64,000 nt of DNA, taken from assembly GCA_022897995.1 (NCBI GenBank), contig GCA_022897995.1_4763.1. One strand, written 5' to 3'. Below the pieces are notes generated by a model. The model was not told the DNA's origin, did not search any database, and saw only the letters and a list, made by a program, of their open reading frames with translations. Within the stretch, counting starts at the first letter, position 1, and each line of letters opens with the position of its first letter. The position numbers and the translations under genes are program-made. The stretch comes from a phage. This document shows positions 3,361 through 51,340 of the stretch, in pieces.

Positions 3361-5469
3361 ATGAAAATGCATATTGATAATGAAGAAGTATTTGGCAGTG
3401 ACTTGAGCGGTGCGGTTGATTTTTCACTGAAAGCAAGTAGCAAGGCTTTTATGGTGCTTTCTAAGAACACTTATCAATATTGTGAGCGTGCTTGCGTCCG
3501 TGAGTATTCGTGCAATGCTACCGACACTCACAAAGAAGCCGGAACCTTAGATCGTCCGTTTGATATTCATTTACCGACTGCAATCGAACCGTATTTTTCT
3601 GTGCGTGATTATGGTACTGGTATTCCGTCTAAGAAAGAATTAGAACAACTGTTTACGGTTTACTTTGAATCAACCAAAGACCAGACTAATGATTATATCG
3701 GATCTTTTGGTTTGGGTGCGAAGTCTGCTTATAGCTATACCGACACCTTTACAATCGTAAACTACTACAATGGTCGCGCTTATGGCTTTACTGCATTTGT
3801 GCAAAACTCTATGCCGAAAATGGTGCAGATTTTCGACGAACCGACCTATGAAGACAATGGTCTGAAAATCACTATTCCGGTGAAAGAAAAAGACATTCAG
3901 ACATGGCATCGAGAAGCACAATTTGTACTGCGTCATTTTGGGGAACACAAACCTAATATCAATGCCATCGAAATTAATTATTTCCCTAGCTTTGATAATT
4001 ATTATGTGTGTAATGGACGTGATAACGATTCCTATGTGGTATATGCAATCATGGGTAAGATCCAGTATCCGATCCCGTATGAATATGTTCGCGGAACATG
4101 GTTAGAAGCTGTAAACCACCAGCACCAGACCATTTACATTAATTTTGAGTTGGGTGATCTGGACCTTATGCCATCGCGTGAAGAAGTTCACTTGTCAATT
4201 GAGACTAAAGCGAACATCGAAAAACGCATTGCAGAAATCAATGAAATGATGTTGGAAAAGGTTAAAGAGAAGATCGCCAACATTAAAACAGAGCGTAAAC
4301 TTGCTCAATTTATGAGCGAGTATTCATCGACGCAACGCAATATTATTAGCAAGATGGGTAAGATCGGACAATGGGACGATCCGGTAGCAATCTATAATAA
4401 GTTTGTGAATGCGGGTAAATATTCGCCTAATGACGTAGAAGGTCAGGTGTATACTCTGTATCGTACTCGTCACACAATCAGTAAATTGCGACCTGCTTTC
4501 GTTAGCAGTCAATACAACATTACGCATTTTGTATGGATGCATAAAGAAGATATTACGTGTCTTATTGATGATACCGATAAACCGAAACTGCGTGCACTGA
4601 CTCTTAACGGCATGGTCCAGGAATATGGAATCAATAAAAAAGTACTGGTGTTCCGTCAGAACAACGAAAAACATATGGAGACTTTCGAGTACATCAAACA
4701 GTATTATGATGATTCTGAAATGACCGTGATTAAGGTATCAGAGGCCGATGATCTGCGTGCTAAAGCAGTTAAGCCGGAGAAGACCGAGCGTACACAACGT
4801 GAAGCTACTCCCAAGCTGCCTAACGTGTATATCATGGAAAAGATTGGTGACAGTTGGCATAAAACCAGCCATCACATGAAAGCGGCAGAGATTCGCGAGT
4901 TATCAGGCTTGCACATGTTCCGCGTAGGTGATGCATTCGAAAGCCGTAGCCGTCAATCGATCTATAATGAAAATACATTACATACGGCGCTTGACTACTT
5001 CGGGGTAACAAAGTATATTATTACTCGAAACGAGACACAAAAATATCTCGTTGACGAACAATTGGAATGTGCGCTAGAATTTGTTCGCGGTAAGCTGGCT
5101 GGTCTGGCTAAGAAGGTTAAGACCAATCATCTGGGGTATGGCGAATATCTGGGTGTGATCACTATGTTGTTTCATGACGATGAACTAGAACGCTGTGTTC
5201 CAGAATTTATTGACAGACTGTACGGTCGTCATTATAATAAAGAGGTTTCCAAGTTACTCCTTCATACTCGTTGGATTATGGACGAAGAAACTAAAAAGAT
5301 TTGTGATGAAAAATTCACGGCAGCAAACGAACGAATTAAAGCAGTTTGTGCGAAGTTTAAAGAGAATAGCCCGTTACTGTATGATATTGTAGATAACTGG
5401 TATCGTATTCTGCATAACGACAAACGCGCACAAGACTTTATGAAACTGGTTAAGAATGTTAAATTTTAA
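3361..5469 (+). CDS. rIIA: rIIA protein (membrane-associated, N-terminal GHKL ATPase-like domain)
   Basis: 702 aa (T4 rIIA about 725 aa); motifs DYGTGIP and GSFGLGAKSAY; sits between 39 and rIIB as in T-even phages. Confidence 0.8.
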   Translation: MKMHIDNEEVFGSDLSGAVDFSLKASSKAFMVLSKNTYQYCERACVREYSCNATDTHKEAGTLDRPFDIHLPTAIEPYFSVRDYGTGIPSKKELEQLFTVYFESTKDQTNDYIGSFGLGAKSAYSYTDTFTIVNYYNGRAYGFTAFVQNSMPKMVQIFDEPTYEDNGLKITIPVKEKDIQTWHREAQFVLRHFGEHKPNINAIEINYFPSFDNYYVCNGRDNDSYVVYAIMGKIQYPIPYEYVRGTWLEAVNHQHQTIYINFELGDLDLMPSREEVHLSIETKANIEKRIAEINEMMLEKVKEKIANIKTERKLAQFMSEYSSTQRNIISKMGKIGQWDDPVAIYNKFVNAGKYSPNDVEGQVYTLYRTRHTISKLRPAFVSSQYNITHFVWMHKEDITCLIDDTDKPKLRALTLNGMVQEYGINKKVLVFRQNNEKHMETFEYIKQYYDDSEMTVIKVSEADDLRAKAVKPEKTERTQREATPKLPNVYIMEKIGDSWHKTSHHMKAAEIRELSGLHMFRVGDAFESRSRQSIYNENTLHTALDYFGVTKYIITRNETQKYLVDEQLECALEFVRGKLAGLAKKVKTNHLGYGEYLGVITMLFHDDELERCVPEFIDRLYGRHYNKEVSKLLLHTRWIMDEETKKICDEKFTAANERIKAVCAKFKENSPLLYDIVDNWYRILHNDKRAQDFMKLVKNVKF

Positions 5470-10072: not shown

Positions 10073-10234
10073 ATGAACTGGTATAAAATTTGGAAAAATC
10101 AGGTGGAGGCTTATCTAGGGTATAAGCCCACCGACAAAGAATTACTTGATGCAATGTACGAAGACGGCTTAAATCCGAAAGTAGCCGCGCAAGAATACGC
10201 GGAATGGGTGAAGGTCGAAAATAATTTAAAATAG
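10073..10234 (+). CDS. hypothetical small protein
   Basis: ATG 10073 just after the previous stop; the tracked frame extends upstream to 10004. Confidence 0.3.
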   Translation: MNWYKIWKNQVEAYLGYKPTDKELLDAMYEDGLNPKVAAQEYAEWVKVENNLK

Positions 10235-10299: not shown

Positions 10300-10512
10300 A
10301 TGAAATCTATTGAGCAAGTAGTAACAGAATTTATGAGCTACGAAGGAAACCGCATCTTTGGACGTTCTCAAGTTCGCGAGATCGTAGAAGAAGTTGCGGG
10401 AGAGTTTGCGGAATCTGGTCACGTTATCACGCAAGAACGTAAAGAAGAAGCAGTAAGCCAGATCATGGCTATGCAGAAAATGCGTATTAATGCACGAGCG
10501 GGTAAAAATTAA
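10300..10512 (+). CDS. hypothetical protein
   Basis: 70 aa ORF directly after the promoter cassette. Confidence 0.5.
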   Translation: MKSIEQVVTEFMSYEGNRIFGRSQVREIVEEVAGEFAESGHVITQERKEEAVSQIMAMQKMRINARAGKN

Positions 10513-34307: not shown

Positions 34308-34475
34308 ATGACCAAATTAAAATGTGTTGCTGTAGATTTTGAGCTAGCTGATAGCTTTGTTGTCGGTGATGAATATGATGCTCGACATGATGGGGCTTGC
34401 TACTACGTTGAGGATGAATACGGCGTAGAATGGGCTATTCTTCCTGATGATAAATGCTTTGAGGTTGTCGAATAA
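34308..34475 (+). CDS. hypothetical small acidic protein
   Basis: ATG 34308 after GTGAGGATTTTATT; 55 aa. Confidence 0.4.
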   Translation: MTKLKCVAVDFELADSFVVGDEYDARHDGACYYVEDEYGVEWAILPDDKCFEVVE

Positions 34476-34648
34476 TGGCTACTGTATGGTTATTGATTGC
34501 AATCAGCAATTCAATGTATAATTACGGAAATATGTCAAGCATTGAATTTGCAACAAAGCAGGATTGCGTTAAAGCTCGCGAGATTATCCGCGAAGACAAT
34601 AAACGCTTTATGAATCTGTACTGTGTTGAAAAGCAGAAGGTGAACTAA
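34475..34648 (+). CDS. small Cys-containing protein, first of a tandem paralog pair
   Basis: 57 aa starting MATVWLL; TAATG overlap with both neighbours. Confidence 0.4.
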   Translation: MATVWLLIAISNSMYNYGNMSSIEFATKQDCVKAREIIREDNKRFMNLYCVEKQKVN

Positions 34649-34815
34649 TGGCTACAATATGGTTATTGCTTTCCGTTAGCGTAGGCTCATATAATAAAGG
34701 AACTGTTACCAGCGTGGAGTTTTCATCACATCAAAGTTGTTTTGAAGCCGTGCAGGAATTGCAACAGGATAACGAAATAAAAAGAAATACTAAGTTCTTT
34801 TGTGTTAAAAAGTGA
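34648..34815 (+). CDS. small Cys-containing protein, second of a tandem paralog pair
   Basis: 55 aa starting MATIWLL; shares Y-N-G-S-EF-C-C-V-K pattern with the preceding ORF. Confidence 0.4.
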   Translation: MATIWLLLSVSVGSYNKGTVTSVEFSSHQSCFEAVQELQQDNEIKRNTKFFCVKK

Positions 34816-44923: not shown

Positions 44924-44937
44924 TTCAAAAAAAGTTG

Positions 44938-44996
44938 TTGACAGGGGATCACCGATCCCCTATACTACACACATACCGAAACGAACTAGGAGAATC
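44938..44996 (+). promoter_or_regulatory. sigma70-like promoter with stem-loop in the spacer
   Basis: TTGACA 44938-44943, spacer GGGGATCACCGATCCCC (perfect palindrome), TATACT 44961-44966; leader CACATACCGAAACGAACTAGGAGAATCA. Confidence 0.65.
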
Positions 44997-45000
44997 AATT

Positions 45001-45180
45001 ATGAACTTCAACGAAATCATCGCTAAAATCCGCTACAACGAAGAAACCATTGAACTGATGCAAAACAATATCACCAATGGTTATATGATTGCAGCGTCAC
45101 AAGAAATCATTGATTTGACAGTAGCAGAAAATGCTCAGTTGAAACATCAACTTTCAACGGCTGGCGTGATTGTTATGTAA
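45001..45180 (+). CDS. hypothetical protein
   Basis: ATG 45001 directly after the conserved leader and SD. Confidence 0.45.
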   Translation: MNFNEIIAKIRYNEETIELMQNNITNGYMIAASQEIIDLTVAENAQLKHQLSTAGVIVM

Positions 45181-45530: not shown

Positions 45531-45587
45531 TGTAATATAACAATCATCGGGAGGGGCAATACTCTCCCACAAATTGAGGATAATATT

Positions 45588-45896
45588 ATGGAACGTACCA
45601 ATTTGTTTGTAACCGAACCTTTCGTTGAAGGCAACAAGAACCTTGCTAATACGGTTATTCTTTACGAAGATTGGATCTTTTACATTGACGAGAATTTAGA
45701 CGTATATTGTCGTCCAACTCCAAATGACTCATTCTATATCGAAGAAAACGATACACATAATCATTGGTATAACGGAAACGACGAAACAGACCTTGCTATT
45801 GTTCTCGAATCAGGTGTAGAATCGGAACATGCAGATGAAGTAGCGGATAAATTTGTACAATACGCATATAAAGATAAAGATGAGGATGAAGAATAA
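45588..45896 (+). CDS. hypothetical acidic protein
   Basis: 102 aa ORF with SD GAGGATAATATT. Confidence 0.45.
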   Translation: MERTNLFVTEPFVEGNKNLANTVILYEDWIFYIDENLDVYCRPTPNDSFYIEENDTHNHWYNGNDETDLAIVLESGVESEHADEVADKFVQYAYKDKDEDEE

Positions 45897-45903
45897 AAAG
45901 TTG

Positions 45904-45962
45904 TTGACAGGGGATCGGTGATCCCCTATACTACACACATACCAACGAGATATAGGAGAATC
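45904..45962 (+). promoter_or_regulatory. sigma70-like promoter with stem-loop in the spacer, near-identical to the copy at 44938
   Basis: TTGACA 45904-45909, spacer GGGGATCGGTGATCCCC, TATACT 45927-45932; same leader and SD. Confidence 0.65.
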
Positions 45963-45966
45963 AAAA

Positions 45967-46134: not shown

Positions 46135-46148
46135 TTTTATAAAAAGTG

Positions 46149-46213
46149 TTGACAGGGGAGACACCCTCCCCTATAATATACACATCGAAACGAGATACCA
46201 ATTAGGAGAATCA
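46149..46213 (+). promoter_or_regulatory. sigma70-like promoter with stem-loop in the spacer
   Basis: TTGACA 46149-46154, spacer GGGGAGACACCCTCCCC, TATAAT 46172-46177; leader ACACATCGAAACGAGA...TAGGAGAATCA. Confidence 0.65.
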
Positions 46214-46217
46214 AACA

Positions 46218-46469
46218 ATGGCTAACATCGAAACCGCAAAGAAAATCGCTAAAGACCTGAACGTTAAAGGCTTCCGTAAACTGAAATTACAGCGTGTACG
46301 CTACACCATCGGCAAACAGTGCTCTTTCATGAGCGAAGAAGTTGCTAACAGCCTCATCGATAACCTGATCGCGGCTGGCTGGGAAGTTACGGATCTGAAA
46401 ACTTGCAGCGAACTGGCTAACAAAGGTCTTTTAGATTCTGTTACTATCAAACCAATGGGGGCAGCGTGA
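46218..46469 (+). CDS. hypothetical protein
   Basis: 83 aa starting MANIET, the same first five codons as the ORF at 48105; first gene after the promoter. Confidence 0.45.
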   Translation: MANIETAKKIAKDLNVKGFRKLKLQRVRYTIGKQCSFMSEEVANSLIDNLIAAGWEVTDLKTCSELANKGLLDSVTIKPMGAA

Positions 46470-47182
46470 AACAAAAATTAATATTCTGCAACTTTGACGG
46501 ATCGGGGATAATGGGGCTAGAATGGGCTAAAGCAGGTCATAAGGTGATCTGCTTTAATGCTGACGATGGCGACCACGGTACATACAAAAAGTATAATACC
46601 AGATTTGAACATCCAAACATTACCTATGTAAACACATGGATTGATTTGAACTGGCTGGAAAGAGCAATGGACCTTGAATGGGGGAAACCGGATATTATCT
46701 TTGCATTCCCACCGTGCACAAATTTAGCTGTTAGTGGCGCTGCACACTTTGAACGAAAGAAACGAGAGCAAGGACCATTGATTCAAGTTCATGATGTGAG
46801 GGCAGCTAAAATAACCGCTTATTTGGGTGAATGGCTAGGAGTTCCCTACATGATAGAGAATCCTGTAAGCGTTATCTCTAGCATGTGGCGTAAGCCTGAT
46901 TACATGTTCCATCCGTGGGAATATGGTGGTTATTTGCCGGAAGATGATAAACATCCTACGTTTCCTGAGTATATCGCCGCCCGTGATATGTACCCGAAAA
47001 AGACTTGCTTATGGACCGGACAAGGCTTTATAATGCCAGAAAAGAAACCGTTGCCGATTAATAAAGGGTACAGTAAACAGCATTCTAAGCTAGGCGGGAA
47101 AGGAACCAGAACAAAGACTATCAGGTCACTTACCCCGCGAGGATTTGCAAAGGCAGTATTTGAAGCCAATAAGGATCTATAA
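46466..47182 (+). CDS. C5-cytosine methyltransferase-like protein (SAM-dependent, compact)
   Basis: Motif I-like FCNFDGSGIMG, motif IV-like FAFPPCTNLAVSG (PC catalytic Cys), motif VI-like MIENPVS, C-terminal RSLTPRGFAKAV; 238 aa with only a short candidate target-recognition region. Confidence 0.45.
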   Translation: MKQKLIFCNFDGSGIMGLEWAKAGHKVICFNADDGDHGTYKKYNTRFEHPNITYVNTWIDLNWLERAMDLEWGKPDIIFAFPPCTNLAVSGAAHFERKKREQGPLIQVHDVRAAKITAYLGEWLGVPYMIENPVSVISSMWRKPDYMFHPWEYGGYLPEDDKHPTFPEYIAARDMYPKKTCLWTGQGFIMPEKKPLPINKGYSKQHSKLGGKGTRTKTIRSLTPRGFAKAVFEANKDL

Positions 47183-47511
47183 TGAGATTGTTTAAGTATT
47201 CTCTAACGTCAAATTACGATAAACAAGGTCATTGCATCCGTTGCCCTAATTGCCATAGCCATAACATTGAAAGCAAGATCACCGATCATATTGATGGACT
47301 TTGGTCGCCAGCAAGCGAGATAGAATACTATTGCGCTGATTGTGGAATTGTAGTAGCATATTGGGCATACGGATCATATGATCCTTACTTCCAGATGGGA
47401 GAGCGTTCAATCCCTGCTCTTATCTGGAGAATTAAGAACAATATCCGGCATTCATGGGATGAGTTCTTAAAAGATATTGATTTACGTGATGATCCATTCA
47501 GGAGACTATAA
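47182..47511 (+). CDS. zinc-ribbon protein
   Basis: CIRCPNCHSH ... YYCADCG; TAATG overlap with the upstream methyltransferase-like gene. Confidence 0.4.
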   Translation: MRLFKYSLTSNYDKQGHCIRCPNCHSHNIESKITDHIDGLWSPASEIEYYCADCGIVVAYWAYGSYDPYFQMGERSIPALIWRIKNNIRHSWDEFLKDIDLRDDPFRRL

Positions 47512-48028
47512 CATGAACAGATTAACGCCTAAACGCCGTTACTATACCAATACTAAAAACTTTGTCATCTCTGTTTATGAGGCGTGGTTAGAAGATGGAT
47601 ATATCAACATGAACCCAGATTATCAGCGTCCTTTAGTATGGGACACCGAAAACAAACGTATGTTTATCGAAAACCTGATTAATGATTTTCCGGTTGGTGC
47701 TATCGCAATGGCTAAGATTGATGATGGCTCTCGCTATGAGATCGAAATCGTGGACGGTAAACAGCGTTTAAACGCAATATTCTCTTTCATGAAGGATGAG
47801 TTTAGCATTGCTGGTAATGATGATTCTATGCTGTATTACAGCGATTTTACGCCAGCAGAAAAGCGACGTTTCCGAAATCTCGGACTACCAGCGATCATGA
47901 TGGAAGAGAGCACACGAGAAGACCGATTAGAGTATTTCTACAAAACAAACTTTTTCGGTGTGCCTCAATCGGAAGAACATCGCCAGCACGTAATTGCCCT
48001 ATTGCAAGATGAGCAATTAAAAAAATAA
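47477..48028 (+). CDS. DUF262 (ParB/GmrS-N-like) domain protein
   Basis: DYQRPLVW and IVDGKQRLNAI motifs as in DUF262 (DYQR...W, DGQQR); 183 aa stand-alone; overlaps the upstream ORF. Confidence 0.45.
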   Translation: MIYVMIHSGDYNMNRLTPKRRYYTNTKNFVISVYEAWLEDGYINMNPDYQRPLVWDTENKRMFIENLINDFPVGAIAMAKIDDGSRYEIEIVDGKQRLNAIFSFMKDEFSIAGNDDSMLYYSDFTPAEKRRFRNLGLPAIMMEESTREDRLEYFYKTNFFGVPQSEEHRQHVIALLQDEQLKK

Positions 48029-48039
48029 CTAAAAAGTTG

Positions 48040-48100
48040 TTGACATAACAGAGGGTGTATATCATAATACACCCATACCGAAACGAACTACTAAGGAGTA
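48040..48100 (+). promoter_or_regulatory. sigma70-like promoter with inverted repeat over the -10
   Basis: TTGACA 48040-48045, 17 nt spacer, CATAAT 48063-48068; GGGTGTATatcataatACACCC stem; leader ATACCGAAACGAACTACTAAGGAGTATCA. Confidence 0.6.
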
Positions 48101-48104
48101 TCAA

Positions 48105-48317
48105 ATGGCTAACATCGAAATCATCATTACCGACGTAACTTATGACCGCATCAACGAAATCGGTACTGCATTACTGGAAGATGGAACAACTCGTACCATC
48201 AACTACGCAGAATACGTTGAAATGCGCGGTTGGATTAAACGAGTAGGAAAATATATCCTGATTGAAAAAGACTATTCAGGATACACCTTAGAGCAATTGC
48301 TTGATGGTGCATTATAA
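48105..48317 (+). CDS. hypothetical protein
   Basis: 70 aa starting MANIE, the same first five codons as the ORF at 46218. Confidence 0.45.
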   Translation: MANIEIIITDVTYDRINEIGTALLEDGTTRTINYAEYVEMRGWIKRVGKYILIEKDYSGYTLEQLLDGAL

Positions 48318-48324
48318 TAAAAAG

Positions 48325-48352
48325 GGGGCGTTAAGCCCCTTTTTCATAAATA
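48325..48352 (+). terminator. rho-independent terminator
   Basis: AAAGGGGGCgttaaGCCCCTTTTTC hairpin with T-run. Confidence 0.6.
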
Positions 48353-48385: not shown

Positions 48386-50437
48386 ATGTTTAACTTAGAA
48401 ATCGACGATCTAATGATTGAATCTTTCGAGAAATGGCTGTTGACGGAAGAGGAAGAAAACTTTGGCAGTATTGCTCCGGTACAGTGCTTAAAGCCTAAGC
48501 AGAATCCTAAACAGCTTTTTGCAGTACAGACACGCGATAAAGATGTGATTGTCCGTCTTTGCAACTTCACCAACAAAACACCTAAAATTGTTCGTATGGG
48601 TGACAAGACCGCACATGTTGTACTGTGCGAAATGAACAAAAGCGGTCGTATTGTACAGCTTAAAAATGGTCTAGGCGATAACCCGATTGCAGTTATGGCA
48701 AGTGCTTTTGATGTGGTTATGGAAACAGCCCGTAAAGCGCAATTAGACGCTGTTATGTTCCGTTTTAACGTATCCCGCATGAAAGGTAAGACCGAACTGG
48801 TTAAGCGCGTTATAGAGCGTTTGGTGCGTCGTACACCGAAGTTCGAAGTATTCCAGCAGGAAGTAATGACCAGCAAAAAGATCGCTTTGGTTGTTGTCAA
48901 GCGTCGCGGGATGGCGATTGATAAGATTAAAGGGATTAAACTTGATGATTCCCTGTTCACTAAAGTAGAAAGTGATTTAGGTGATCGCTGGGTATCTAAG
49001 GCTACTGGCGAATCTCTGACTAAAGATGAAGCGTATGCGGCTAGCCTTGCATCAGAAGAAGAACGAAACGCGGAAGCGGAACAACGTGTAGCGGCTAAAT
49101 CTCGTTTGACTAAAGAAGAAATGCTGAAAACTCAAGCGACCTATAACAGCGACTATGTGAATCATCCAGAAAAAATTAATCTTAAACCGGAAGAAGATAT
49201 CACCGAAGCCGAACCTAAGAAACAGTTTAATACTCTGATTGATCGTCAAGCCTTAGAACGTTCAACCGCTCGTTCTCTGAATGACTGGACAAGTGATATT
49301 ATCACTCGCTATGGTTTCATGCGTACTATTTTTGAAAGCGAAGCCGATGCAAAATACGCAGTAAGCGAACTGGTAAAAGTTCAGGACCAATATGATCCGT
49401 TGTCTGCGGAAGTTATCGCAGCATCAATCAAACGCTTAAAAGAAATCATGAATGAAGAAGTGTTTGAAAACAAGATCACCGCCCTAGCAATGGATCGAGT
49501 AGACCAGTCTATGCCAGCAGATGTAAAGGCTGAAATGTTGCGTAGTCACATCACGCAGATTAAAACCGATGCCCTACGTAATGTTGCTTCCGGTATGTTT
49601 GAAGCAATTGCTAGCAACATGGGTGAAATGATGGCAGATATTGATCTTGATCTGCCGGGCGCGGAAGGTTTTGTGTTGAGCGAGTATGCCGATGCAGCAT
49701 ACATCAATATGAACAACTTCCTAACCGACCGTAAGCTGGAAGAGTTTGACGGCATCGCAGATCCAGAAGAATTGGTCAAGATGTGCGATGCACTGGATAA
49801 TGCCTTCTCTAACTATGGCGTTAAACTTGATCCGGGTACTATTCTGTATCGTGGTATGGACTTCCGGTCTCAAATGTGGGAAACTGCACGTAAGCAAAAA
49901 GCGTTTTACTTTAAAAACTATGTGAGCACTTCCCTTGCACCTAACATTTTTGGCGGCTGGAATGCAAACGTGGCTAGTGCCGTTGCTGGTGTTGATTCTA
50001 TGGCTGGATCTCGCGGTGAAGGTGGCGCTAATGTTGCTTTCTCCATTGCTGGCGCGGAAAACATCCCTGTATTGCCAGTAGGTAACAAGGCATTTGCTTA
50101 CAAAGAATGCGAGATTTTACTTCCTCGCGGCGTTGTGTTATCCTTTGATACGGTAACTCGTGCCACGGCATCGACGGATTCACAAGAAACTTATTACATT
50201 GAGGCACATATTATGAACAAAAATGAACTGGCAGCATTACAAGAATCTGGCGAGATGATCGCGGACGGTGATGCATTCATCCGTGAAGGTGTTGTTAAAC
50301 CTGCTTCTGACCTGTCTTTCTCCAGCTTTATTACCGAAGCTAAAACCGAACGTAAGAAAGCAGATAAGGCAACTCTACGTCAGCTTATCGCTGATCTGGT
50401 ATCTGTAGACGCAATGCCAGATAAATTTAAAATGTAA
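48386..50437 (+). CDS. alt: ADP-ribosyltransferase Alt
   Basis: 683 aa (T4 Alt about 682 aa); C-terminal R-S-E motifs: LYRGM, FKNYVSTSLAP, ECEILLPRG; position between 30 and 54. Confidence 0.75.
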   Translation: MFNLEIDDLMIESFEKWLLTEEEENFGSIAPVQCLKPKQNPKQLFAVQTRDKDVIVRLCNFTNKTPKIVRMGDKTAHVVLCEMNKSGRIVQLKNGLGDNPIAVMASAFDVVMETARKAQLDAVMFRFNVSRMKGKTELVKRVIERLVRRTPKFEVFQQEVMTSKKIALVVVKRRGMAIDKIKGIKLDDSLFTKVESDLGDRWVSKATGESLTKDEAYAASLASEEERNAEAEQRVAAKSRLTKEEMLKTQATYNSDYVNHPEKINLKPEEDITEAEPKKQFNTLIDRQALERSTARSLNDWTSDIITRYGFMRTIFESEADAKYAVSELVKVQDQYDPLSAEVIAASIKRLKEIMNEEVFENKITALAMDRVDQSMPADVKAEMLRSHITQIKTDALRNVASGMFEAIASNMGEMMADIDLDLPGAEGFVLSEYADAAYINMNNFLTDRKLEEFDGIADPEELVKMCDALDNAFSNYGVKLDPGTILYRGMDFRSQMWETARKQKAFYFKNYVSTSLAPNIFGGWNANVASAVAGVDSMAGSRGEGGANVAFSIAGAENIPVLPVGNKAFAYKECEILLPRGVVLSFDTVTRATASTDSQETYYIEAHIMNKNELAALQESGEMIADGDAFIREGVVKPASDLSFSSFITEAKTERKKADKATLRQLIADLVSVDAMPDKFKM

Positions 50438-50515: not shown

Positions 50516-51340
50516 ATGTTCAAACAATTACAGGATTTTCGTCTTTCAGAAGAATCACGCGAATCAATGATGGAACGTATGGATAATTACATAGAAACAT
50601 ATGGCATTGAGGGGATTAATGGTTACATGATCACTGAGATGATCAGCGATCAGATTAATTTTGATGATTATGTGAAGATTATCCGCTTCCTTGAGCGTGA
50701 GACACAAGATTATGGATTTGTCAAGAAAATCATTAATGTGATGTATGAAGTACACTCCGAAGATTTTGGAGATAATGTATTCAAACATTACAAACATAAC
50801 AACATAACCCCAGCAGAATATAATGCAATCTGTGATTATGTGTCTGAACAATACGAATGGGTAAATGGTGCTCTCTTAGGGGAAGAAGACATGACCGACG
50901 AGATATCAGAAATTGTTGATTTGATGGATTGTGTCATGGATAAAACCGAAAAGTTAAACGGTACTCTTTATCGCGGTCAACATCTTGACATTCAGACAAT
51001 AGAGCGTATTATTGAAGATAAGGAATTTACCTTTAAAAACTTTGTGTCAACCAGCATGACACCAATCATCTTTGGAGGCTGGCTTTCAAATAGCACTAGC
51101 CTTTATTGTGAGAATCGATATGAATCCATGACCGGAAAGATGCAACATTCTTGTAATGTATCATGGGTAATTGACGTAAAAGATCATAAAGGTTTTGTTG
51201 TTGGATCAATTGCATGGAATCCTTGCGAATGTGAAGTAATTTTACCGCGCGGGACTTGCATAAAGGTAAACGACGTAGTAGAATCCTTCGGCGATGAGAA
51301 TCGTAGACAATTTACAATTTTCGGTGAGGTGACTAAATGA
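50516..51340 (+). CDS. second ADP-ribosyltransferase, Alt-domain paralog
   Basis: LYRGQ, FKNFVSTSMTPIIFGGW and ECEVILPRG closely mirror the Alt catalytic motifs; 274 aa. Confidence 0.6.
   Translation: MFKQLQDFRLSEESRESMMERMDNYIETYGIEGINGYMITEMISDQINFDDYVKIIRFLERETQDYGFVKKIINVMYEVHSEDFGDNVFKHYKHNNITPAEYNAICDYVSEQYEWVNGALLGEEDMTDEISEIVDLMDCVMDKTEKLNGTLYRGQHLDIQTIERIIEDKEFTFKNFVSTSMTPIIFGGWLSNSTSLYCENRYESMTGKMQHSCNVSWVIDVKDHKGFVVGSIAWNPCECEVILPRGTCIKVNDVVESFGDENRRQFTIFGEVTK

Follow-up and report, generated by a model that had tools for sequence, protein, structure and literature searches.

How do two small genes with unrelated products come to begin with the same stretch of coding sequence? The question is raised by 64,000 nucleotides (nt) of phage DNA (contig GCA_022897995.1_4763.1 of the GenBank assembly GCA_022897995.1; hereafter the window), in which the open reading frames (ORFs) beginning at 46218 and 48105 share the start ATGGCTAACATCGAAA, exact at 46218-46233 and 48105-48120 and with no other copy in the window. 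With the preceding A it becomes an exact direct repeat of 17 nt, AATGGCTAACATCGAAA (46217-46233 and 48104-48120), which holds the codons ATG GCT AAC ATC GAA and a further A, and encodes the peptide MANIE. Judging by its sequence, the window is a Krischvirus, a T4-type coliphage like RB49, Phi1 and JSE; between 44.9 and 48.4 kb it matches 64 Krischvirus records, among them RB49, Phi1, JSE, Cognac and kaaroe, at 93-96% identity, and the two genes are the homologues of RB49 ORF190c and ORF185c. A preliminary description had noticed both the common MANIE start and the complete divergence of the gene bodies after it, and it was right on the two counts: BLASTP gives no alignment between the proteins at E <= 100 and they fall in different PHROG families with different sets of homologues, so that paralogy was rejected. 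Neither gene has a Pfam family. The explanation that we hold, with evenly balanced confidence, is that the shared start is an ancient footprint of recombination through short homology near the start codon, or of short-patch conversion, and is now a potential in-frame crossover site.

The identity is confined to an island from -1 to +16, within coding sequence, with dissimilar sequence on both flanks. Its 16 nt are the longest prefix shared by any two of the 86 gene starts of the window that are preceded by a Shine-Dalgarno sequence (SD), the next longest being 12. Under a position-specific model of these same starts 0.0014 such pairs are expected; for 59 non-redundant promoter-proximal ORFs, drawn from the window and its relatives, the figure is 0.0008. 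When the codon columns were shuffled 500 times, identity over nt 4-18 never rose to 14/15 in any pair. All remaining start pairs match the shuffle null, with the exception of true paralogues at 34475 and 34648. These are two tandem small ORFs (34475-34815; 57 and 55 aa, MATVWLLIAI and MATIWLLLSV) and form the only other very similar start pair. Since start similarities fit the null, no class of N-terminal motifs raises the odds of such a match. Indeed, a general class MxN[IL]EI, including alt and the ORF at 45001, was discarded on these grounds; the alt gene starts MFNLEI, and its 11/15 similarity to the shared start lies within the null.

These figures bear directly on coincidence under common constraints, that is, on the independent rise of the identical 16 nt by point mutation in two initiation regions. 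Such an origin assumes strongly expressed early ORFans with unstructured, A/C-rich starts and preferred codons (GCU as second codon, AAC, AUC, GAA). The leader and first codons of both mRNAs are in fact unusually unstructured, folding worse than 199/200 and 200/200 shuffles (z +1.85 and +2.14); the heptamer ATCGAAA is common (27 plus-strand copies in the window, mostly Ile-Glu codons) and ATC-GAA is a frequent Ile-Glu codon pair. Furthermore, the identity is an island between dissimilar sequences, the four-residue N-terminal stretch of the ORF185c family varies at constant length, with one relative (P0018) beginning MA, and the finding came from a scan, which enriches rare coincidences. However, only about 0.001 such pairs are expected per window, and the pair consists of ORFans 1.9 kb apart, each driven by a promoter element of a demonstrated recombination hot spot in which other start-proximal repeats mark real indels. 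Because the expected counts are low, 14/15 identity was reached in none of the 500 codon-preserving shuffles and similar starts form no fat tail, chance appears unlikely, if still to be reckoned with.

The preliminary description had also seen the ATCGAAA of the leader recur in the first codons. This is true of the unit upstream of the ORF190c homologue in this isolate (the 46140 unit; copies at 46184 and 46227), but the leader of the 48031 unit, upstream of the ORF185c homologue, has ACCGAAAC in its place. Moreover, the ORF190c leader, ATCGAAAC in the window, reads ATCAAGAC in every relative inspected except L043. The recurrence was dropped as a signal, being absent from the relatives and made of a common heptamer. 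L043 (contig 170 of Logan SRR18709854) has the gene arrangement of the window and the same unusual ORF190c leader, ATCGAAACGAGATACCAATT; its phage is probably the same as, or almost identical to, that of the window.

The promoter elements of this locus belong to a known system. In hyperplastic region 3 (HPR3) of RB49, Arbiol et al. (2010; PMC2839356) described the elements named PeSLs, composed of a strong sigma70 promoter with a stem-loop, a leader and an SD, which border RB49/Phi1 indels and recombine into mini-circles. Promoter and terminator activity in vivo and mini-circle formation are reported from experiments on other PeSLs of RB49 and Phi1, and crossovers were reported for PeSL190/191 (PMC2839356). 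The window locus equals RB49 ORF185c-191c in HPR3, and its ORF190c-side element corresponds to PeSL190/191, which was used in the mini-circle experiments (PMC2839356). The likeness to the PeSLs of RB49, Phi1 and other T4-like phages (PMC2839356; Comeau et al., 2014, PMC4122927) extends to the genus and to the hyperplastic region itself. In each unit there is an AT-rich part, AAAAAG(T)TGTTGACA following the stop codon of the upstream gene, sigma70 boxes (TTGACA-17-TATAAT, 12/12 to consensus, for ORF190c; TTGACA-17-CATAAT, 11/12, for ORF185c) with a G/C-rich stem-loop lying between them or across the -10, and then an SD followed by the start codon. Both precede ORFans and are linked to insertion, deletion or replacement differences among close relatives, and the PeSL of ORF190c is among those with sequenced mini-circle crossovers.

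Could the shared start be the downstream end of a complete promoter-leader-start unit that was moved onto another gene body, as the preliminary description proposed? PeSLs are mobile regulatory cassettes whose 3' boundary is set at the start codon, with shared codons not mentioned (PMC2839356, PMC4122927), and both the window methyltransferase gene and the ORF at 45588 carry the initiation region of a deleted upstream neighbour. The leaders are similar as members of the PeSL family; nevertheless, the 46140 and 48031 upstream units are just 64% identical, near the bottom of the 57-86% range of 28 PeSL pairs, and each is nearer to other PeSLs (the former to those at 44929 and 45895, the latter to those at 10229, 36782 and 37063). 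Next to the ATG the leaders differ by indels (GGAGAATCAAACA-ATG against GGAGTATCAA-ATG), the ORF190c type ending in TTAGGAGAATCAAACA-ATG. Similarity does not run continuously over the ATG; there is an isolated identity in the first codons, which sets the repeat apart from the PeSLs described.

The relatives inspected were the isolates RB49, Phi1, Cognac, MIZ4, PHB13, SSG23, JK32, UPWr_E1 and ECD7 and about 15 metagenomic contigs. Among them the promoter and stem-loop halves are exchanged freely, with at least four classes 5' of ORF185c and three or four 5' of ORF190c, evident chimeras included, while in more than 20 genomes the last ~35 nt of a leader remain characteristic of the gene that follows. 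Furthermore, the same start on a third gene body, which a mobile unit might have left, was found neither in IMG/VR nor in the metagenome collection nor in 50,697 phage records: the pattern scan of IMG/VR returned two contigs, both normal, and that of the metagenomes 11 loci, of which five, with six matches, are the known genes and the other six unrelated chance matches. For any recent event the transfer of a whole cassette is contradicted, and on the whole we consider it improbable.

Recombination at the starts themselves is nevertheless visible in this locus. Three indels separate the window from its relatives. The first concerns RB49p189.1 (~0.25 kb), present in about 50 records and missing from the window, JK32, UPWr_E1, G2248, E26, pEJ01 and JSE. 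Its ends fall within the opening codons of two genes, GTGAAAAGAAAATTAAT for p189.1 (MKRKLI) and ATGAAACAAAAATTAAT for the methyltransferase (MKQKLI). The methyltransferase of the window consequently begins with GTGAAACAAAAATTAAT (46466-46482), where the GTG of p189.1 and its upstream context are joined, within TGAAA, to the Dcm body; this GTG overlaps the ORF190c stop (GTGA), whereas RB49-type genomes have an ATG start and the additional gene. The second is a 192-nt gene of Cognac and MIZ4, flanked by TTGAGGATAATATTATG and TTGAGGAAATTACTATG and missing from the window, where the joint lies exactly at the ATG, between two SD-spacer-ATG sequences identical at 14/17 nt. The third is a module of ORF186c (59 aa) and an extra PeSL, which lies between the GmrSD_N gene and ORF185c in RB49, Phi1 and many others and is missing in the window, ECD7, Cognac and JK32; its end points are inside PeSLs (48030-48105 in the window against 5367-5700 in L002), and the PeSLs on either side of the missing module are complete.

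The imperfect repeats that flank the two start-ended indels match at 14/16 and 14/17 nt and are made of initiation regions and first codons, with no promoter or stem-loop involved, which is a second departure from the PeSL model. Gene-sized modules are thus gained and lost here by exchange between short start-site repeats, with or without a promoter, and the surviving gene retains the initiation region of its neighbour. In length the MANIE repeat falls in this class, and the module bracketed by it (1,887 bp) comprises the ORF190c body, the methyltransferase, the zinc-ribbon ORF, the GmrSD_N protein and the next PeSL.

Which of the two families owned the start can be approached through more distant homologues. 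In the ORF190c family the motif is found at the homologous position in P0011 (ATG AAC ATC GAA GCA GCA AAG, MNIEAAKK) and P0014 (ATG TTA ACT ATC GAA ACA GCA, MLTIETAKK), with P0015 starting MKVDAAKK. In the ORF185c family, starts such as MVTSKK (P0003), MAIRQI (P0018), MTIKTI (P0019), MAIKVTKKETK and MLKCTIKTIR precede a conserved I-[IV]-x-x-VTYD core, and the Drexlerviridae members have longer extensions. The ORF190c family is therefore where the AACATCGAA start is native; in the ORF185c family residues 2-5 are variable, and its Krischvirus members carry ATGGCTAACATCGAA. In the ancestor of Krischvirus, ORF185c may have received its start from the ORF190c lineage, a direction that these outgroup starts fit without proving it.

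A distant T4-like metagenomic contig (L006) encodes both families, with no start common to the two; there the ORF190c domain forms the C-terminal half of a 128-aa protein (5004-5390), and the contig also has the ORF185c homologue P0003 and ORF193c/194c-like genes, suggesting that these ORFans travel together. ORF185c homologues of 40-50% identity occur as well in T1-like Drexlerviridae (egaa, Stevie, phSE-2 and Brooksby; L012-L015), always adjoining the spanin gene, which makes the family an ORFan shared across phage families. An apparent natural chimera of ORF190c, P0016, was rejected: its contig (L020, OQVL01016296.1) appears to be an assembly chimera at both ends, in which the Alt N-terminus runs into an unrelated enzyme and the C-terminus of ORF190c is attached to an acidic protein (P0016).

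Bringing these elements together, an event in the common ancestor of the genus would have provided the ORF185c body with a copy of the five opening codons (ATG GCT AAC ATC GAA A) of the ORF190c lineage. It would not have been the transfer of a whole promoter-leader-start unit or, if it ever was, later PeSL-PeSL exchanges would have replaced everything 5' of the ATG. This reading is favoured by its context, a known recombination system, and by the recombination visible at or just inside starts of the same locus. The ORF185c unit also counts for it, as a mosaic of abutting exact tiles of 16-17 nt, each common to a different PeSL (48030-48045 with 45894, 48074-48090 with 44972 and 48089-48104 with 37125), the MANIE patch being the last tile. 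The recombination footprint first proposed is supported in part, by the recombination-driven PeSL setting, by the indels bounded by PeSLs and starts and by the evidence of the outgroups, but not in the notion that promoter, leader and start moved as one unit. In turn, the repeat being in frame, a crossover inside it would delete the bracketed module or excise it as a circle, and either product would keep an intact promoter-driven ORF. The circle junction would read GGAGTATCAA-ATGGCTAACATCGAAA-CCGCAAAG and the deletion junction GGAGAATCAAACA-ATGGCTAACATCGAAA-TCATCATT.

Several observations weigh against this footprint reading. The sequence 5' of the ATG differs and is stably gene-specific, and a simple crossover does not explain an isolated 17-nt island, which would take two or more events, or else conversion over a very short tract. 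In the relatives inspected, the ORF185c copy of the start is invariant and so is that of ORF190c, save in L042 (ERZ28596148 scaffold_34), so that the event itself cannot be seen. In L042 the ORF190c start is the variant ATGACTAACATCGAAA (ATGACT, MTNIE) and its ORF185c keeps ATGGCT, which implies that the two copies are not under ongoing homogenisation. The constant length between Met and core over which residues 2-5 vary in the ORF185c family, together with the MA of P0018, means that plain divergence could also yield ANIE. From P0003, codons 2-6 of ORF185c differ (6/15 nt identical), but 12 of 65 windows along the gene are at least as divergent, and this divergence was rejected as proof of a graft, not being exceptional. 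Finally, synthetic deletion and circle junctions over the repeat, searched against the 50,697 phage records, aligned with normal loci only (85-92% identity), and twelve further contigs encoding ORF185c have normal neighbours throughout, with no recombinant over the repeat.

The constancy of the start invites a different explanation, in which the sequence would be a functional element: either a common RNA element of the initiation region, as a translational regulator or nuclease target, or an N-terminal peptide tag comparable to the leader of the T-even Ip proteins. The sequence is invariant in almost all Krischvirus genomes, and the neighbouring alt gene has its MFNLEI start. Nevertheless, the first 48 nt of ORF190c are as invariant as the repeat, and conservation is thus not specific to it; the MTNIE variant exists, the similarity of alt is within the null, and only five residues in two proteins are concerned. 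Furthermore, NIE does not fit (L/I)-x-E, the motif of the prohead protease.

As far as the T-even ip loci of Repoila et al. (1994) are portrayed in later papers (PMC2839356, PMC3012670, PMC12373910), there is a real likeness, since unrelated small proteins of a plastic locus share regulatory sequence and first codons and then diverge fully. The Ip proteins share only their N-terminal leader, in a hot spot with PeSL-like elements (PMC12373910, PMC3012670, PMC2839356), these elements being assigned to the ip loci by Arbiol et al. (PMC2839356). In the same accounts, however, the capsid-targeting leader of the Ip type is longer, occurs in numerous proteins, is kept from phage to phage and has an established role in packaging and processing. 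A leader of the Ip type belongs to several unrelated proteins and is kept in their orthologues; MANIE is restricted to two proteins of one genus, and orthologues outside it start otherwise. We judge a functional element very improbable.

A further parallel to the proposed crossover comes from T4, where short direct repeats give rise to deletions (Singer et al., 1982; Mosig et al., 1998): as related in PMC2839356, less than 50 bp of homology suffices, and small non-essential hyperplastic ORFs are lost in this way. Set beside that account, the differences are that no deletion is observed over the MANIE repeat and that the repeat lies in frame at two starts, with ORFs kept in both products. A broader and rather doubtful suggestion is that direct repeats of 14-17 nt in initiation regions and first codons, with or without a PeSL promoter, constitute "linkers" of a second class, through which T4-like hyperplastic regions exchange modules. 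Such linkers would excise or insert whole modules by in-frame crossovers at starts, here the 1.9-kb methyltransferase/GmrSD_N block, leaving ORFs intact on both products, and would also graft N-terminal codons between ORFans.

Should the repeat be a recombination joint, what is exchanged in these regions would not be strictly a promoter cassette ending at the ATG. Joints might be placed a few codons into a gene, or at initiation regions that lack a promoter, creating chimeric N-termini and start codons while ORFs remain intact. This would refine the model of PeSLs and modular evolution and bear on the annotation of start sites and small ORFans in these phages. The cassette system, the locus and the genes were already known, and no new kind of system is revealed. 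What is added is an exact identity lying wholly in the first codons and evidence that promoter-less initiation-region repeats serve as indel joints, a modest variant of a known mechanism.

The genes of the region follow the order DNA ligase, HNH, small ORFans and then the Alt ADP-ribosyltransferase; Table 1 gives the features discussed. RB49 ORF192c, equal in length to the HNH gene of the window, was considered as its homologue and rejected, the two not being homologous.

Table 1. Position of the shared start, its genes and neighbouring elements in the window.
Feature	Coordinates	Strand	Details
Repeat copy 1, AATGGCTAACATCGAAA	46217..46233	+	-1, codons 1-5 and first base of codon 6 of the ORF190c homologue (MANIE-T...)
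Repeat copy 2	48104..48120	+	Start of the ORF185c homologue (MANIE-I...)
ORF190c homologue, 83 aa	46218..46469	+	SD-preceded; phrog_14908, function unknown
ORF185c homologue, 70 aa	48105..48317	+	SD-preceded; phrog_10679, function unknown; distant homologues in Drexlerviridae
PeSL upstream of the ORF190c homologue	46136..46217	+	AT-rich UP region; -35 TTGACA 46149-46154; -10 TATAAT 46172-46177; stem-loop AGGGGAG/CTCCCCT 46154-46172 in spacer; leader ACACATCGAAACGAGATACCAATT; SD AGGAG 46204-46208
PeSL upstream of the ORF185c homologue	48030..48104	+	-35 TTGACA 48040-48045; -10 CATAAT 48063-48068; stem-loop GGGTGTAT/ATACACCC 48053-48074 over the -10; leader CATACCGAAACGAACTACT; SD AAGGAG 48093-48098
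DNA methyltransferase-like gene	46466..47182	+	phrog_757; labelled Dcm in relatives; start is the chimeric joint
Zinc-ribbon-like ORF, 109 aa	47182..47511	+	RB49 ORF188c homologue
GmrSD_N (DUF262) domain protein, 171 aa	47513..48028	+	RB49 ORF187c homologue; last gene of the bracketed module
Initiation joint TTGAGGATAATATTATG, start of a 102-aa ORF	45574..45590	+	At the ATG the left initiation region passes into the right gene body
Neighbouring PeSL	44929..45000	+	Stem-loop AGGGGATC/GATCCCCT between -35 and -10
Neighbouring PeSL, 5' of the ORF191c homologue	45895..45966	+	Alignment of RB49-type genomes with the window begins exactly at its 5' edge
G+C-rich hairpin with subsequent T run, terminator-like	48325..48339	+	Directly 3' of the ORF185c homologue; the consensus scan scored the - strand

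A few further observations concern the elements of the table and their surroundings. Short BLAST matches to the segment from the -10 through the leader to the SD of the ORF190c-side PeSL (46173-46210) come from six records of Campylobacter phages and from the coliphage "grams" (49.5 kb). A second possible shared start, MKSIE, between the gene at 10300 of the window and CDS0046 of MIZ4 (L005 6246-6067), was discarded, the proteins being non-homologous and the 11-nt prefix within chance. Both of these genes are PeSL-driven, have ATGAAATCTAT in common and lie downstream of the same PeSL subclass, GGGAGTAGTA..TACTCCC. Finally, a 65-nt repeat of 71% identity (49904-49968 and 51026-51090) links the alt gene with the downstream gene for an Alt-like ADP-ribosyltransferase and corresponds to paralogous domains.

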